From Omnitrophica WOR_2 bacterium GWF2_43_52 (GTDB taxonomy: Bacteria; Omnitrophota; Gorgyraeia; Gygaellales; UBA12090): a stretch of 64,000 bases of DNA. The stretch spans positions 4,270 to 68,269 of the forward strand of contig MHGF01000029.1 of assembly GCA_001805445.1 (NCBI GenBank). Reading direction: 5' to 3'. The notes below the pieces were generated by a model. That model saw only the letters and a list, made by a program, of their open reading frames with translations, had not been told where the DNA came from and ran no database searches. A program made the translations under genes and the position numbers. Shown in pieces: positions 3,662 through 58,634 of this stretch (positions are counted from its first letter, which is position 1; each line of letters starts with the position of its first letter).

Positions 3662-4348
3662 ATGCCTAAACTGGAAAATTACCGTAAAATAAAAAAGTTT
3701 TGCCTGGAATGGGGCGCGGACCTCTTTGGGGCGGCGGAGATATCCTCGTTAAAAGGTACCTTTGTTATTACTCCAAGAATCGTTGAGGGTTTACAGAGCG
3801 CAATCAGCCTTGGAGTACGCGCTTCGTGCGAAGTTTTAGGTGAAATTGAGCAGCAACCTACCAAACTTTATTTCCATCATTATCGCACCATTAATATGTT
3901 TTTGGACCAATTAGCGCTGCGGTTAAGCAATTATATCCAGAATTTAGGTTTTCGCTCGCTTCCTATACCCGCATCGCAAATCGTTGACTGGCAAAAACAA
4001 ACTGCTCACCTTTCCCATAAGCATATAGCGTATTTAGCGGGATTAGGCTGGATTGGCAGAAATAATTTAATGGTAAATAATAAGTTAGGCAGTCAGTTCA
4101 GGTTGGTAACGGTGCTTACGGATATGCCTTTAAAGTCAGATAAGCCTACGCAAGAAGATTGTGGAAATTGCCGCGCGTGTGTGGTACTATGTCCAGTAAA
4201 AGCAATAAAGGAAAAAAGAGAAGATTTTGACCATTTAGGGTGTTTTGCCTTATTGAAGGAGTTCCAAAAACAAAAGATTGTTGACCAGTATATCTGCGGA
4301 ATCTGCGTAAAAGCCTGTCGTGGAAAATCGCCCTTTAATAAATCTTAA
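3662..4348 (+). CDS. Short epoxyqueuosine-reductase (QueG)-like 4Fe-4S protein
   Basis: QueG-like core AYLAGLGWIGRNNLMVNNKLGSQFRL and 4Fe-4S cluster motif CGNCRACVVLCP. At 228 aa it is shorter than canonical QueG. Confidence 0.45.
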   Translation: MPKLENYRKIKKFCLEWGADLFGAAEISSLKGTFVITPRIVEGLQSAISLGVRASCEVLGEIEQQPTKLYFHHYRTINMFLDQLALRLSNYIQNLGFRSLPIPASQIVDWQKQTAHLSHKHIAYLAGLGWIGRNNLMVNNKLGSQFRLVTVLTDMPLKSDKPTQEDCGNCRACVVLCPVKAIKEKREDFDHLGCFALLKEFQKQKIVDQYICGICVKACRGKSPFNKS

Positions 4349-4416: not shown

Positions 4417-5115
4417 ATGCCAAAAACCACTAATCAGATTGAGGCGCTTTCTCAAATCGCGCAAGCAATTACCTCGGATTTATATTTAGACGATATCTTG
4501 CGGCTTATTGTCACAGTTACTGCCCAAACCTTGCGTTCGAAGATTTGTTCGCTTATGCTTCTTGATGAGAAAAAACAAGAATTGATAATCAGGGCAACAC
4601 AGTCAATATCCGAAAGCTATAACAAAAAATCTCCGCTTAAGGTTGGTGAGGGCATAGCGGGAAAAGCTGCCTTAGAAAAAAGGCCTATTGCTGTCTATGA
4701 TGTGACTCAGGAAAAAGAATATAAATATAAGGATATTGCCGAAAATGAAGGGCTTGCCTCTTTGTTGTGTGTGCCGCTTATGGTTAAGGGAAGGGTCATC
4801 GGCGTAATAAACCTGTATACCTCAAAACCGCATAAATTTACCAACAATGAAGTGCATATGCTCACCGCGATAGCCAATCAAGCCGCGATGGTGATTGAGA
4901 ATACCGAGCTTATGGTAAAATCAAAAATTATTCAGGAAGAGCTTGAGACACGTAAGTTGGTAGAGAAGGCAAAAGGCATTCTAATGAAAGAACAAGGGTT
5001 ATCAGAGTCAGATTCGTACAGGACGATTCAAAAGTATAGCATGGATTCTCGTAAATCAATGCATCAAGTTGCTGAGGCAATTGTCATGGCGCAGGCAGTG
5101 AAAGAAAAGCGATAA
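4417..5115 (+). CDS. GAF domain plus ANTAR (RNA-binding antiterminator) regulator
   Basis: N-terminal GAF-like fold. The C-terminus has an ANTAR signature (TRKLVEKAKGILMKEQGLSESDSYRTIQKYSM). Confidence 0.6.
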   Translation: MPKTTNQIEALSQIAQAITSDLYLDDILRLIVTVTAQTLRSKICSLMLLDEKKQELIIRATQSISESYNKKSPLKVGEGIAGKAALEKRPIAVYDVTQEKEYKYKDIAENEGLASLLCVPLMVKGRVIGVINLYTSKPHKFTNNEVHMLTAIANQAAMVIENTELMVKSKIIQEELETRKLVEKAKGILMKEQGLSESDSYRTIQKYSMDSRKSMHQVAEAIVMAQAVKEKR

Positions 5116-6923: not shown

Positions 6924-7046
6924 CGTATAGCGTGTAGCACATAAGCTGATTAGTTTATGGGTAGGCAGTAGATAGTAATAAGAAAAGATGTTTTTTGTTT
7001 TACTAAACAGCTAACGAGCTAAACAGCTAATGAACTAAGCATTGTT

Positions 7047-8201
7047 ATGAAAGATATTATTTCTAAAGTAGTCCAAGAAATGCAACCTTCAGGTATCCGT
7101 GCCTTCTTTGACCTTGTGCTGGGAATGAAGGATGTCATCTCTCTGGGCGTGGGTGAGCCGGATTTTGTTACCCCTTGGAGTGTCAGGGAATCTGCTATCT
7201 TTTCCTTGGAACAGGGGTATACCAGCTATACCTCGAATAAAGGGATGATGAAGCTCAGGCTTCAAATTGCGCGTTTTCTTAAGAATCATCATGAAGTTAC
7301 CTACGATCCAGACGATGAAATCCTCATTACTGTGGGAGTGAGCGAGGCCTTGGATTTAGCCATGAGGGCTATTATAAACCCTGGAGATAAGGTTTTAATT
7401 CCTGAACCCTGTTATGTTTCTTACGGGCCAGTCACAGCGCTTGCCGGGGGTATCCCTGTGTATGTTTCAACCGCCCCTACAGGCTTTAAAATTACACCTG
7501 AGGCAATTGAGCGGCACTGCGATACGAAAACCAAAGCCATCATTATTAATTATCCTTCTAATCCTACGGGAGTATCGTATAGTAAGAGGGATCTGGAGTG
7601 TTTAAAAAAGGCTATCCTTAAGCATAAGCTTATATTAATTAGCGATGAGGTCTATGATGAGCTTACCTATGATTTCGCGCATACTTCGTTTGCGGCGCTC
7701 TCCGGGCTAAAAAACAATACCCTTTATCTAAACGGATTTTCAAAAAGCTATGCTATGACCGGTTGGCGGGTTGGGTATGCCTGCGGCCCGAAAGAGATAA
7801 TAGCGGCTATGACTAAAATTCACCAATATACCATAATGTGCGTGTCTATAACTAGTCAGATAGCAGCCTGTGAAGCTTTGCAATCGGGGAGAAAAGCTGT
7901 CGAAGAAATGAAGCGTGAGTACCGGCGCAGAAGGGAATTTGTGGTAGATAACCTCAATAGGATAGGATTATCCTGCAATAAGCCTCAAGGGGCGTTTTAT
8001 GCCTTTGCTTCGGTAAAAAACACCAGCTTAAACTCAATAGATTTCTGCCAGCAGTTACTTAAAGAGCAGAAAGTGGCGGTAGTTCCCGGCAACGCCTTTG
8101 GAAAGTCGGGAGAAGGGTATATCCGCATTTCCTATGCCTCCAGCTTTAGCAATTTAAGAGAGGCGTTAAGGAGGATGGAGATATTTTTAAAGGGATTGTG
8201 A
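7047..8201 (+). CDS. Class I/II pyridoxal-phosphate aminotransferase (aspartate/aromatic type)
   Basis: 384 aa. NPTG motif and PLP-lysine context SKSYAMTGWRVGY. Confidence 0.8.
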   Translation: MKDIISKVVQEMQPSGIRAFFDLVLGMKDVISLGVGEPDFVTPWSVRESAIFSLEQGYTSYTSNKGMMKLRLQIARFLKNHHEVTYDPDDEILITVGVSEALDLAMRAIINPGDKVLIPEPCYVSYGPVTALAGGIPVYVSTAPTGFKITPEAIERHCDTKTKAIIINYPSNPTGVSYSKRDLECLKKAILKHKLILISDEVYDELTYDFAHTSFAALSGLKNNTLYLNGFSKSYAMTGWRVGYACGPKEIIAAMTKIHQYTIMCVSITSQIAACEALQSGRKAVEEMKREYRRRREFVVDNLNRIGLSCNKPQGAFYAFASVKNTSLNSIDFCQQLLKEQKVAVVPGNAFGKSGEGYIRISYASSFSNLREALRRMEIFLKGL

Positions 8202-16715: not shown

Positions 16716-17142
16716 AAGAGATGATGGAAGCCGCATGGCCTCTTGGGTGCGCGAGGGGAGGCCTGCGGTCAAGAAAATATGGGTTACCAAAGTAACCATA
16801 AAATTACTTATCATAATAATAAGGTTATGGTATACTCTTTTCTTGGCGGAAAGTGTAAAAAGGGCAAATCGGTTTGACCGTTAGCCCCTAGAGAGACAAA
16901 AAAATTACAGTAGTGCACTGTGAAATTAGTTCTCAATAGTTGACAGTGCACTAAGGGGGTGTGGGGAAGACCGTTACCCACGATTGGGGGGTGTTCAGCG
17001 TAGCCGACGATGAGTCGGCGGAGCGCCGAAGGGGGGCTTGCTCCCATAGCGGAAGTGCGGAGTTAACTTTCGCTATACTACCAATAATTAAGTTAACAGA
17101 GCACTAGTGCGGTAATATGTTAAAAGTGCCTGCCCACGGCTT

Positions 17143-56459: not shown

Positions 56460-57020
56460 ATGGCAGTAAAAGACATAATAAAAGACGCGGATGAAAAGAT
56501 GAAGAAGGCTCTCGAGGCGATGCAGAGAGAATTTTCGGAAATTAGTACCGGGAGGGCAAACCCTCATATGGTAGAGGGCTTGCGTGTTGAGTGTTACGGC
56601 TCTCCGATGCTTTTAAAGCAATTAGCATCGATTAGTGTTCCCGACGCGCGGACACTATTGATTCAGCCCTGGGATACCACAGTCATTCCGGAAATAGAGA
56701 AGGCAATTTTGAAATCAAACCTTGGGGTTAGCCCGGTTAATGATAAGAAAGTGGTAAGGCTTGCAATCCCGCAACTTTCTAAAGACAGGCGCGATGAGCT
56801 GGCCAAAGTGGTAAAGAAAATGGCAGAAGAAGGAAGAATCTCCTTGCGGACTATTCGCCGAGACATGAAAGAAGCTATTGATAAGCTGGAGAAGGATAAA
56901 CGTATTTCAGAAGATGATAAATTCAAAGGCCATGACAGTTTGCAGAAAGTGATGGATTCTCACATAGAGAGAGTTGATCAGATATTGGCAGCAAAAGAAA
57001 AAGAATTGGCCGAATTCTAA
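56460..57020 (+). CDS. frr: Ribosome recycling factor
   Basis: MAVKDIIKDADEKMKKALE is a canonical Frr start. The tracked ORF is extended upstream in frame. Confidence 0.9.
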   Translation: MAVKDIIKDADEKMKKALEAMQREFSEISTGRANPHMVEGLRVECYGSPMLLKQLASISVPDARTLLIQPWDTTVIPEIEKAILKSNLGVSPVNDKKVVRLAIPQLSKDRRDELAKVVKKMAEEGRISLRTIRRDMKEAIDKLEKDKRISEDDKFKGHDSLQKVMDSHIERVDQILAAKEKELAEF

Positions 57021-57021
57021 A

Positions 57022-57117
57022 ACACGAATTATCACGAATGAAAAGCCGAATTAACACGAATAAAAACCATGCGGTTAATTCGTGTTATTTTGATTCAAAT
57101 TCGTGTAAATTCGTGTT
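57022..57117. repeat. Palindromic array of CACGAAT units followed by ATTCGTG units between frr and tRNA-Lys
   Basis: acacgaat tatcacgaat gaaaagccgaat taacacgaat ... attcgtgt tattttgattcaa attcgtgt aa attcgtgt. Confidence 0.65.
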
Positions 57118-57120
57118 TAT

Positions 57121-57193
57121 GGGCCGCTAGCTCATCAGGTAGAGCATCGGCTTTTTAAGCCGAGTGTGCCGTGTTCGAGTCACGGGCGGCTCA
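57121..57193 (+). tRNA. tRNA-Lys (anticodon TTT)
   Basis: Manual fold: acceptor GGGCCGC/GCGGCTC, D-arm GCTC..GAGC, anticodon stem TCGGC/GCCGA with loop TTTTTAA, T-arm CCGTG-TTCGAGT-CACGG. Confidence 0.85.
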
Positions 57194-57196
57194 TTT

Positions 57197-57399
57197 TTAT
57201 AATTTCGCAGGTGACGTAGAACACAAGGGGGTTGAGGGGGAAGCATTTCCCCCTCGCTTTCGGGGTAACAGTCCGCCACGATTTTTGGCGGACGCCATAG
57301 GGGCAGTGGTTCGATTTTGCTTACCATCCTTCGAATCATCCTGAGCGAAGTCGAAGGAAGCCTCTTTGGATAGTGTTCGAGTCACGGGCGGCTCATTTT
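57197..57399 (+). other. 177-nt structured insert bounded by a 26-bp direct duplication of the tRNA-Lys 3' end
   Basis: gtgttcgagtcacgggcggctcattt occurs at 57171-57196 and again at 57374-57399. The insert contains hairpins GGGGGAAGCATTTCCCCC, TCCGCC-N9-GGCGGA and CCTTCGA-N16-TCGAAGG. Confidence 0.5.
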
Positions 57400-57495
57400 A
57401 AGTGTAAAGTGTGTAAGTGTAAAGTGTGTAAGTGGGATGAGTGTGTATGAGATTCACGAAACTTTACACTTACGCACGTACACACTTTTTGTCTG
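57400..57495. repeat. Palindromic array with AGTGTAAAGTGTGTA units (two direct copies followed by inverted copies) plus a T-run
   Basis: agtgtaaagtgtgta agtgtaaagtgtgta agtg ... actttacacttacgcacgtacacact ttttt. Confidence 0.5.
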
Positions 57496-57504
57496 CCTTA
57501 CCGA

Positions 57505-57586
57505 GGGCGGATGGCGGAATTGGCATACGCGATAGCCTTAGGAGCTATTGGGGAAACCCTTGGAGGTTCAAATCCTCTTCCGCCCA
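57505..57586 (+). tRNA. tRNA-Leu (anticodon TAG), long variable arm
   Basis: Manual fold: acceptor GGGCGGA/TCCGCCC, anticodon stem ATAGC/GCTAT with loop CTTAGGA, variable arm GGGGAAACCC, T-arm GGAGG-TTCAAAT-CCTCT. Confidence 0.8.
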
Positions 57587-57689
57587 GTACATCAGAACTA
57601 AGAGCTAAGAATTTAGTTTGTAGCCACAGGTGGCTTTTTAACAATATCCTGCCTTCGGCAGGATAATTGTTGTAAGCAAACATAGCCGA

Positions 57690-57810
57690 TTGTTAAAAAG
57701 CCAAAGGGGTGCGGGGAAGGAATTTTCCCCGCGCTGTTGGGGTGACAGCCCTAACGTAACTTCGGGGCGCCATAGGGGCGAAGCCCCTATGGGGAGTGAA
57801 CGTCCGTCAA
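57690..57810 (+). ncRNA. Candidate structured RNA element, paralogous to part of the 57197-57372 insert, with RNase P RNA S-domain-like motifs
   Basis: AAAGGGGUGCGG...CCCCGCGC, GGGGUGACAG, CGCCAUAGGGGC-GAA-GCCCCUAUGG. It aligns with the earlier insert over GGGGTAACAG ... CGCCATAGGGGC. Confidence 0.35.
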
Positions 57811-57886
57811 TAGGAGATAAGTTTTTGATAAGGCAAAAAGCTTTATTTGTTTACTTGCTAGCCTTGAATAGTCTATAGTGAACGAC

Positions 57887-57959
57887 GCGGGAGTAGCTCA
57901 GTTGGTAGAGCGCAACCTTGCCAAGGTTGATGTCACGGGTTCGAATCCCGCCTCCCGCT
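57887..57959 (+). tRNA. tRNA-Gly (anticodon GCC)
   Basis: GCGGGAGTAGCTCAGTTGGTAGAGC...CCTTGCCAAGG...TTCGAAT...CTCCCGC. Close to the canonical tRNA-Gly(GCC). Confidence 0.85.
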
Positions 57960-58154
57960 TATTTACCCCAGTAGAGAAAGCCACCGAATTTATTCGGTGG
58001 TCATCACCTTATAAAGTCGACGGTGGTTTAATGCCACCGTTGGCGCGGACCGTTAGAGAACGTAATTCTCTAACGGGGTTTACTTTAGCGTGGAAGTTTT
58101 CATTGTATTTTTAGTTTAACAAGTTGTTGCTATCGGTATTGTGTTGAAGGAGGA

Positions 58155-58634
58155 ATGACTCGTATGAAAATTATAGAGTTTCTGTCGAAAGACGCAATGA
58201 GCGCAGATATTAAAGCAACCAAAAAGGAGGATGTGCTCAAGGAAATGGTTGATTTGCTTGTCTCTGCCCAAGCGATCGATAAAAAATGCCGCAATAAACT
58301 TGTCGAGCAGCTTATGGCAAGAGAAGCGTTAGGTTCAACCGCGATTGGACAGGGAGTAGGAATACCCCATACTAAATCGGATTGCGTCAATAAGCTTACT
58401 GCTGCCTTTAGCCTGTCGCAAAAGGGCGTTGATTTTGATTCCCTTGACGGAGAGAAAGTGTATATCTTTTTCCTGCTTATTGCCCCTATAGATTCCGCGG
58501 GCCCTCATTTAAAGGCCTTGGCCAGGATTTCCCGTCTTCTTAAAGACAAATATTTCCGTGACAGCCTTAAGGAATGTAAAGATGAAAAGGCTATTTTTAA
58601 AATCATCATTCAGGAGGATGAAAAAAGAGTATAG
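58155..58634 (+). CDS. ptsN: PTS EIIA-Ntr-type regulatory protein (PtsN-like)
   Basis: EIIA fructose/Ntr family, with the active-site His context GQGVGIPH. Confidence 0.7.
   Translation: MTRMKIIEFLSKDAMSADIKATKKEDVLKEMVDLLVSAQAIDKKCRNKLVEQLMAREALGSTAIGQGVGIPHTKSDCVNKLTAAFSLSQKGVDFDSLDGEKVYIFFLLIAPIDSAGPHLKALARISRLLKDKYFRDSLKECKDEKAIFKIIIQEDEKRV

Follow-up and report, generated by a model that had tools for sequence, protein, structure and literature searches.

Two elements in a transfer RNA (tRNA) cluster, together with a third, divergent copy elsewhere in the same stretch, belong to one widespread family of structured RNA elements of about 90-150 nt. The stretch (hereafter the window) is 64,000 nt of Omnitrophica WOR_2 bacterium GWF2_43_52 (contig MHGF01000029.1, positions 4,270 to 68,269); element A follows tRNA-Lys(UUU), element B follows tRNA-Leu(UAG) and the third copy lies at 16950-17049. 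The explanation we favour, with a probability of roughly 55%, is that the family is a protein-less, non-autonomous structured RNA that behaves like an insertion and sits at the termini of stable-RNA genes. The family has no entry in Rfam 15, and the literature searched (on Clostridiales-2, on Omnitrophota tRNA and non-coding RNA, and on the motif strings) held no description of it.

An initial annotation of the window had aligned A and B over AAGGGG, a hairpin, GGGGT(A/G)ACAG, a second hairpin and CGCCATAGGGGC. That kinship holds, but the coordinates given were too short: the core of A, for example, extends to 57369 rather than 57320. A search pattern derived from A and B, CCCC-N5-11-GGGGTNACAG-N8-38-GCCAWAGGGG, was run against one genome per GTDB species and found more than 120 loci among the matches listed, compared with about 7 expected by chance (our own estimate, which assumes uniform composition). 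Only about two of these loci, L007 and L032 (loci are cited by L numbers), are likely to be chance matches. The pattern, which fixes about 22 nucleotides, thereby defined the family sample. Nearly all of the matches listed are in Omnitrophota or in metagenome-assembled genomes (MAGs) labelled Planctomycetes/PVC, and a few are in Nitrospirota/Thermodesulfovibrionia, Gammaproteobacteria, Thermoanaerobaculia, Edwardsbacteria, FCPU426 and Eubacteriales, with the caveat that NCBI taxon labels are coarse for many MAGs. One carrier, L063, is the complete genome of Ca. Velamenicoccus archaeovorus.

We also built R1, a covariance model that describes the shared core, on homologues from other genomes. 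Across 100 sources it detects 109 copies, some of them additional tandem copies overlooked by the pattern. Within the window, the R1 score is 83.9 bits (E=1e-16) for B (57700-57792), 62.1 bits (E=6e-12) for A (57223-57319) and 28.5 bits (E=1e-4) for the third copy; that of A is lowered because a 55-nt insert splits its last hairpin. Exact occurrences of GGGGTRACAG and CGCCATAGGGGC are confined, in the 64-kb window, to A and B. The Frr protein encoded upstream of the tRNA cluster is identical in four NCBI assemblies (including GCA_003499645.1 and GCA_001806055.1), and their tRNA clusters are identical to that of the window. These near-identical strains (L001-L004) contain no variation and therefore provide no covariation information.

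The fold and its attachment to tRNA termini

The core consists of three hairpins (P1-P3) and often a fourth (P4), joined by near-invariant G-rich junctions (AAAGGGGUG, GGGGUNACAG, CGCCAUAGGGGC). The 5' half of the consensus runs aAAAGGGGUG, P1 (YGGGG...CCCCR), GCUUUCGGGGU-N-ACAG, P2, CG; the 3' half runs P3 (CCAUAGGGGC-AGA-GCCCCU-x-UGG), GG and the optional P4 (GAGCGA-hairpin-GAGCGAC). About 35 nucleotides are unpaired and near-invariant across phyla, a signature which may be likened to that of ribozymes and aptamers. The parts of elements A and B are as follows:

57171-57197, +: direct repeat copy 1 (tRNA-Lys T-arm, acceptor 3' strand and discriminator, plus TTTT)
57210-57224, +: anti-T-arm strand (a'), GGTGACGTAGAACAC, the 5' strand of closing helix P0
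57225-57233, +: element A, junction J0/1, AAGGGGGTT (family alignment and model)
57234-57255, +: element A, hairpin P1, GAGGGGGAA / TTCCCCCTC (covariation)
57256-57271, +: element A, junction J1/2, GCTTTCGGGGTAACAG (family alignment; its base N covaries with P3)
57272-57292, +: element A, hairpin P2 (covariation)
57293-57369, +: element A, CG and P3, in which CCATAGGGGC (57295-57304) pairs with GCCTCTTTGG (57360-57369)
57373-57399, +: direct repeat copy 2 (duplicate of the tRNA-Lys 3' end), in which the first 13 nt form the 3' strand of P0
57700-57792, +: element B core (R1, 83.9 bits; family alignment)
57703-57710: element B, J0/1
57711-57732: element B, P1
57733-57748: element B, J1/2
57749-57767: element B, P2, followed by CG
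57770-57792: element B, P3

Covariation statistics were computed on 95 distinct sequences and compared with 500 shuffles. Paired cells made up 89% of the total (81% in shuffles) and 195 cells had changed on both sides (66 in shuffles), and none of the 500 shuffles reached any of the observed covariation measures. When the partner was slid by 1-3 columns, pairing fell to 36-61%. Compensatory changes occur in 6 of the 8 pairs of P1 and 5 of the 6 pairs of P2, so the homologous loci provide strong support for these two hairpins. P3 is almost invariant, partly since the search pattern imposed it, and its hairpin is backed by the variants L025 (GGGGGU/ACCCCC) and L090. RNAalifold also proposes a competing pairing, between the GGGG of J1/2 and the CCCC of P3.

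At two positions of the P2 base, tandem G.A/A.G pairs occupy 124 cells and Watson-Crick pairs 59, and this tandem G.A is an RNA-type, strand-specific feature; the CGA/GAG theme of the P2 base is found again in P4 and P0. Base N of GGGGU-N-ACAG covaries with x, a mismatched base in the 3' strand of P3 (A:U 85, G:A 13, U:G 3, C:G 1, with few exceptions), which indicates a probable tertiary contact. The length of the J0/1 G-run follows that of the G:C run of P1. Counts of G.U versus A.C for the folded strand were uninformative (6 vs 4 and 7 vs 7); the folded strand was assigned because of the tandem G.A motifs and the co-orientation with tRNAs. What emerges is a conserved RNA fold or, at the minimum, one specific to a strand.

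The position of the elements in a tRNA cluster, pointed out in the initial annotation, proved to be a key feature of the family. At 75 loci a tRNA ends no more than 130 nt upstream of the element anchor, and it is always co-oriented with the element (0 of these nearest tRNAs are in the opposite orientation). The host tRNAs cover at least 12 amino-acid specificities. In 64 of the 75 tRNA-linked loci, the element is followed by an exact copy (at least 14 nt) of the 3' end of its host tRNA. This repeat is 14-58 nt long (mostly 17-37), lies 15-120 nt past the core (typically 40-60) and usually ends at the tRNA terminus or within 0-3 nt of it, with CCA included where it is encoded. Flanking direct repeats of at least 14 nt were found for 67 of the 102 elements with enough flank but for only 7 of 357 control positions.

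The start of the downstream repeat has a partner: an anti-T-arm strand just upstream of J0/1, with which it forms the closing helix P0. P0 is recovered in minimum-free-energy folds, and its median duplex energy is -13.6 kcal/mol for cognate pairs, -9.5 kcal/mol for non-cognate pairs and -8.0 kcal/mol for shuffled sequences. An orthologous frr-tRNA-Lys locus is present in 11 loci, and there the anti-T-arm tracks the T-stem of each species (GUGAC..GAACAC, GCGAC..GAACGC, GAGAC..GAACUC). In most tRNA-linked members, A among them but not B, the duplicated tRNA 3' end closes the fold.

In element A the two repeat copies (57171-57197 and 57373-57399) are identical at 27 of 27 positions, and the whole unit, from the tRNA-Lys 3' end through the second copy, measures 202 nt repeat-to-repeat. 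In an RNAfold structure of the unit, the partner of GGTGACGTAGAACAC is GTGTTCGAGTCAC in repeat copy 2, with a G/A mismatch at the centre of the helix; written as strands, P0 is GGUGACGUAGAACAC (57210-57224) with GUGUUCGAGUCAC (57373-57385). The anti-T-arm at 57210-57224 was identified from this fold, from duplex energies and from its co-variation with each host's T-stem across loci. In A, a 55-nt insert (57305-57359) that forms a hairpin divides P3, and it is placed identically in L055, L102 and L107. The orthologue of A in L113, a close relative, lacks the P3 insert and has P4.

The insert itself is a short interspersed repeat, GGTTCGAC-N-GCTCACCATCC...CCTGAGCGAAGTCGAAGG, with a 14-bp hairpin, that occupies the P3 loop of A. 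The same repeat occurs at about 46746 in the window and in L035 and L039, and half-copies occur elsewhere.

Variants of the closing arrangement exist. In one subclass the inner part of P0 (GAGAACCY/RGGUUCU) is supplied by the element itself, and a small hairpin takes the place of the T-loop centre, with a tRNA tail of 17-20 nt after it. L024 and L054 have long antisense strands that complement the tRNA end perfectly over 15-20 nt, with a terminator-like hairpin between the antisense strand and the tRNA.

Copies elsewhere and the surroundings in the window

Genomes carry several copies, at different tRNAs. The MAG ERP119294_co1_15 has at least 7 free-standing copies within a ~260-nt unit whose ends resemble terminal inverted repeats (TIRs). 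Tandem arrays comprise 3 units in L050 (4152-4603), 2 in L006 (5538-5823) and about 1.2-1.3 in L063 (692-880) and L113 (~7037-7250), and partial last units end just past the anti-T-arm/J0/1. L122 contains two near-identical copies (1416-1577 and 4067-4228, 2 mismatches), the second at a non-tRNA site. This second copy is limited by the tRNA 3' end on one side and by the T-loop-centre hairpin on the other, stopping right before the 17-nt tRNA tail, and so possibly delimits a mobile unit. Close relatives also differ in which elements they have, e.g., B is absent from the orthologous Leu-Gly spacer of L113.

Two loci involve stable RNAs other than tRNA. In L109 the element occupies the 23S-5S spacer in antisense orientation. 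On either side of it is a copy of the 5S 5' end, forming a 37-nt direct repeat (4225-4261 = 4423-4459) which ends at the 5S terminus, an arrangement that is the mirror image of the one seen at tRNAs. In L016 the element lies 33 nt downstream of a canonical class A rnpB (113-621, - strand; 168.7 bits). About 20 nt past the L016 element come a ribosome-binding site and the ATG of a gene that, judged by eye, resembles PilT.

Group I introns (RF00028, 81-93 bits) match at L024 397-632, L083 542-753 and L055 4411-4638. In L024 and L083 the intron interrupts the host tRNA of the element, which is why ARAGORN missed these two tRNAs, and in L055 the intron match is more than 3 kb from the element (1202-1344). 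All three loci have a terminator-like hairpin between tRNA and element. The Omnitrophota loci analysed also contain riboswitches unrelated to the element: c-di-GMP-I in L119 (6281-6371), c-di-AMP in L116 (370-552) and TPP in L058 (2926-3036).

The remaining features of the window locus, together with the third copy, are:

56460-57020: frr, the gene preceding the tRNA cluster
57019-57118: palindromic block of ACACGAAT-type repeats (100 nt), between the frr stop codon and tRNA-Lys
57120-57194, +: tRNA-Lys(UUU), host gene of element A (ARAGORN; Rfam tRNA, 59 bits)
57399-57488: long imperfect hairpin with a U-run at its end, directly after the tRNA-Lys 3' duplicate
57505-57586, +: tRNA-Leu(UAG), upstream of element B (ARAGORN, Rfam)
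57631-57703, +: perfect 15-bp hairpin with a nested GC hairpin at 57645-57665 (inverted repeat; fold)
57887-57959, +: tRNA-Gly(GCC), the end of the cluster (ARAGORN, Rfam)
from 58155: ptsN-like gene
57127-57339 (-), 57197-57385 (-) and 57690-57878 (+): small open reading frames (ORFs) overlapping the elements
16950-17049, +: third, divergent, free-standing family member, intergenic and flanked by hairpins

The arms of the palindromic block at 57019-57118 are 20 nt long and 85-90% complementary, and the block has a weak, sub-threshold match to the lactis-plasmid RNA model. The stretch at 57399-57488 has two tandem 15-nt units (TAAGTGTAAAGTGTG) beside the hairpin and may terminate the tRNA-Lys/element A transcript. 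The 3' arm of the 57631-57703 hairpin continues straight into J0/1 of element B, and this hairpin is analogous to the a/a' hairpins of the family's free-standing subtype; no duplicate of the tRNA-Leu end was found for B. The R1 model detected no family element downstream of tRNA-Gly(GCC), and a promoter/terminator scan of 56900-58200 found no convincing independent promoter for A or B. We set aside a coding reading of the overlapping ORFs, as the conservation pattern is that of paired RNA. Around the third copy, the flanks (16911-17100) form hairpins, the upstream one being AGTGCACTGT...ACAGTGCACT.

Competing explanations

In the explanation we favour, the inserted unit is the spacer, the anti-target strand and the core. 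It is placed directly after the tRNA gene in the same orientation, with the host gene's last 14-58 nt directly repeated on its two sides, and the anti-target strand pairs with the downstream repeat to make P0. The direct repeat would be the footprint of a Campbell-type or attachment-site (att-type) insertion, and repeats would end at the gene terminus because only insertions reaching the terminus keep the host gene intact. Selection for P0 would preserve the antisense strand. The element would be co-transcribed with the tRNA, and its core may do an RNA-level task for the element (self-processing or recruitment of a host factor), with P0 presenting the host-derived sequence. A more ambitious version makes the core a new catalytic RNA whose anti-T-arm guide docks the host tRNA 3' sequence, genuine or duplicate, and cleaves and/or ligates at the boundary. 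We consider this version speculative and distinctly unlikely. If true, a unit-length and possibly circular RNA would be released while the tRNA 3' end is defined, and the family would be a tRNA-dependent, protein-less, self-processing mobile RNA, i.e., a bacterial 'retrozyme/viroid-like' element at tRNA genes.

Several observations count against an insertion-like element. No mobility protein is associated with the family: clustering of ORFs within 3 kb and Pfam searches of the 120 nearest neighbours found no enrichment of integrases, transposases or reverse transcriptases, and the Pfam matches of those neighbours are to housekeeping genes only. Nothing was found in viral contigs, phages or plasmids. 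Many copies occupy orthologous loci across species, which suggests long vertical inheritance and possibly a host function instead of active transposition, and repeats of 14-58 nt are atypical of transposase target duplications. B, the third copy and several subtypes have no repeat, and the pairing of P3 relies on the few variants named above. Furthermore, this explanation does not account for the way in which anti-target strand and repeat would acquire their match to each new host gene, and expression and processing are predictions of it.

The main rival holds that the family has been domesticated by its hosts as a cis-acting RNA of tRNA operons, in which the core would be a sensor/switch or a processing signal for tRNA maturation or its 3' end. 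The anti-T-arm would alternate between the real T-arm, which blocks tRNA folding, and the decoy copy, which forms P0 and frees the tRNA. Such a role would suit the unbroken co-orientation of the 75 tRNA-linked copies with their tRNAs, the orthologous positions across many species (e.g., the 11 frr-tRNA-Lys loci), the very strong purifying selection on the core, the three-way co-variation of anti-T-arm, tRNA and copy, and the fact that the repeat usually stops at the mature tRNA terminus. The four G-tracts and two C-tracts, with a J0/1 G-run that tracks P1, are compatible with alternative pairings as well. It is harder to reconcile with an element that is present at only some tRNAs of a cluster, with free-standing multi-copy versions that have TIR-like ends and no link to tRNAs, with the antisense copy in a 23S-5S spacer, with intrinsic-terminator-like hairpins between tRNA and element in some loci, and with tandem arrays and presence/absence between close relatives. 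We judge a domesticated switch or processing module rather unlikely.

The classic footprint of integration into tRNA genes is a direct repeat that spans the T-arm or T-loop through to the tRNA 3' end. The elements might be DNA-level remnants of integrase-mediated integration, as miniature attL/attR elements of the cis-mobilizable element (CIME) type, with a core that serves recombination or arm binding, or that folds as a single-stranded att site, and is not a functional RNA. The repeats fit this footprint, P0 with its mismatched T-loop centre may resemble a folded single-stranded att site like that of the CTX phage, and the 5S case implies that orientation follows the gene end rather than transcription. 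However, no integrase lies near any of the roughly 120 loci, the units are merely 110-250 nt long, the hosts are at least 12 tRNA species plus 5S, and phage, viral and plasmid collections contain nothing similar. A DNA-only att remnant accounts for the repeats and not for the RNA-type covariation; the core also shows tandem G.A motifs exchanging with Watson-Crick pairs and a tertiary covariation. We consider this reading improbable, and more so than a catalytic core.

The initial annotation had listed as possibilities for A and B a highly reduced or split RNase P RNA, a tRNA-binding module derived from the specificity domain (S-domain), pseudogene fragments, and coincidental resemblance in an unrelated structured RNA family. 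It is the last of these that our evidence supports. In favour of a link, the elements share AAAGGGUGCGG, GGUAACAG(UCCG) and AUAGGGG with E. coli M1 RNA, they adjoin RNase P substrates, and the L016 element follows rnpB by 33 nt. However, Rfam scans found no RNase P family at 56950-58150 or 57685-57830 (E<=10), nor in the whole window at the gathering score. The initial annotation had already reported that conserved regions I (GGAAAGUCCGG) and V (ACAGAA.CCGGCUUA), which form helix P4 of RNase P RNA, could not be found in or near the elements; the lack of any model match agrees with this. For comparison, the rnpB matches of E. coli and L016 show the two strands. Conversely, R1 scores just 3.4 bits (E=1.6, filters off) on the S-domain of E. 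coli rnpB, less than it gives a random site that lies 1 kb away within the 3.5 kb searched.

The structural contexts differ too. All three M1 strings quoted in the initial annotation do occur in E. coli rnpB, but they had been given the wrong helix labels (P9-P13): in the standard naming they belong to P13, P14 and J5/15-P15, and the CCAAAUAGGGG region is part of the catalytic domain. According to the Rfam alignment, AAAGGGUGCGG..CGCACC of M1 is a junction plus a complete hairpin (GAAAG+GGUGCG-GUAAGAG-CGCACC), GCGCGGCUG-GUAA-CAGUCCGUGGC is the next hairpin, with GGUAACAG being its GNRA loop and 3' strand, and CCAAAUAGGGG is an internal loop entering a later helix. The corresponding strings of the elements are J0/1 plus P1, J1/2 and the 5' strand of P3, i.e., junctions and a helix strand where M1 has two hairpins and an internal loop. 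For GGGGUAACAG in the elements an M1-type hairpin is impossible, and in the covariation-supported fold this sequence is single-stranded. The UCCG that extends one match to 12 nt is merely part of the P2 stem of copy A, which is variable. Element-carrying Omnitrophota MAGs also have a canonical class A rnpB of full length (L016, 168.7 bits; L119, 154.3 bits). We therefore reject a relationship to RNase P, which failed in the E<=10 scans, in the reciprocal R1 search of rnpB and in structural context, and regard it as extremely improbable.

Other identities were considered and discarded. The neighbours are unrelated housekeeping genes that follow tRNA-locus synteny, unlike those of a riboswitch or cis-regulatory leader, and among other curated RNA families there is only a sub-threshold match to Clostridiales-2, with weak lactis-plasmid and microRNA matches that are noise. 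A phage, viral or plasmid origin was dismissed, as the pattern had 0 matches in 2.9 million viral contigs (IMG/VR) and element B had no blastn match in phage or plasmid collections. The anti-T-arm does not fit a tRNA-primer reading (resembling a primer-binding site), being complementary to the T-arm and not to the 3'-terminal 18 nt including CCA. An origin from mature RNAs by cDNA or template switching is disfavoured by junctions that lack CCA where it is unencoded and by the antisense orientation of the 5S case.

If our description holds, the family is a widespread, cross-phylum RNA fold of Omnitrophota and neighbouring uncultured phyla that is absent from Rfam and the literature searched, and it ranks among the more strongly constrained orphan bacterial RNAs. 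Its anatomy is unusual: it attaches to tRNA termini (occasionally to 5S or rnpB) and duplicates the host's terminal sequence. The duplicate pairs with an antisense strand that evolves in step with the host tRNA, and the two make up the element's own closing helix. This combination points to a protein-less mobile RNA element of a new kind, or else to a new tier of RNA-based regulation or processing linked to tRNAs. Both readings are directly testable because a cultured host with a complete genome exists, Ca. Velamenicoccus archaeovorus LiM (NZ_CP019384.1, about 232,597-232,880), in which the element itself is at about 232,692-232,789 and follows tRNA-Gln. For annotation, the family accounts for the 'partial tRNA' fragments and long tRNA spacers that recur in these MAGs.

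Relation to known systems

The likeness to the S-domain of class A RNase P RNA (RF00010) amounts to G-rich strings of 7-12 nt and a shared connection with tRNA biology; the elements differ in lacking its P4 with conserved regions I and V, and neither yields a model score against the other. Integrative elements in tRNA genes and their derivatives without an integrase (CIMEs) likewise have direct repeats of the tRNA 3' part and leave the tRNA intact. In contrast to these, the insert of the family is only about 110-250 nt, it has no integrase, and its hosts are at least 12 tRNA species as well as 5S; no tyrosine or serine recombinase was found within or beside the element among the neighbours of about 120 loci. 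The interior of the insert is, moreover, a conserved RNA fold, and the repeat takes part in its closing helix.

Non-autonomous elements that carry ribozymes include retrozymes and R2, whose 5' hepatitis delta virus-like ribozyme forms a helix with host rRNA sequence, and group I and II introns pair guide and exon sequences. The family may be compared to these as a conserved structured RNA in a repeat-flanked, protein-less unit, predicted to be transcribed together with a stable-RNA gene of the host, with a strand complementary to adjacent host sequence. It differs in that no match of the elements to self-cleaving ribozymes or group I/II introns was obtained with Rfam models (E<=10) and no reverse transcriptase partner was identified.

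Miniature inverted-repeat transposable elements (MITEs) and repetitive extragenic palindromic (REP) sequences are also small, non-coding and multi-copy, and the family shares with them TIR-like ends in one MAG and other repeats nested inside. On the other hand, its core is conserved across phyla, its target is the terminus of a stable-RNA gene, and its repeats are far longer than usual target-site duplications. Judged as a MITE in the window, it would have an inverted repeat consisting of anti-T-arm versus T-arm, a 'duplication' of 27 nt and three copies that have diverged.

The closest known RNA is RF02937 (Clostridiales-2), itself an orphan, which is the best or only non-tRNA match for all three window copies. 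It scores 25.0 bits on A, 20.9 on B and 21.4 on the third copy against a gathering score of 58.6, and 0 of 19 further loci reached that score. The RF02937 model lacks the 3' strand of P3, P4 and P0, which the family has, and its taxa are Clostridiales rather than Omnitrophota/PVC. Nevertheless, the alignments span model positions 1-82, and the two share, in the same order, GGGgUG, a G/C hairpin, a linker, GGGUG(c)uCAG, a second hairpin and CG.C.AAGGG. On the strength of this shared sequence order, RF02937 is probably a distant relative of the family.

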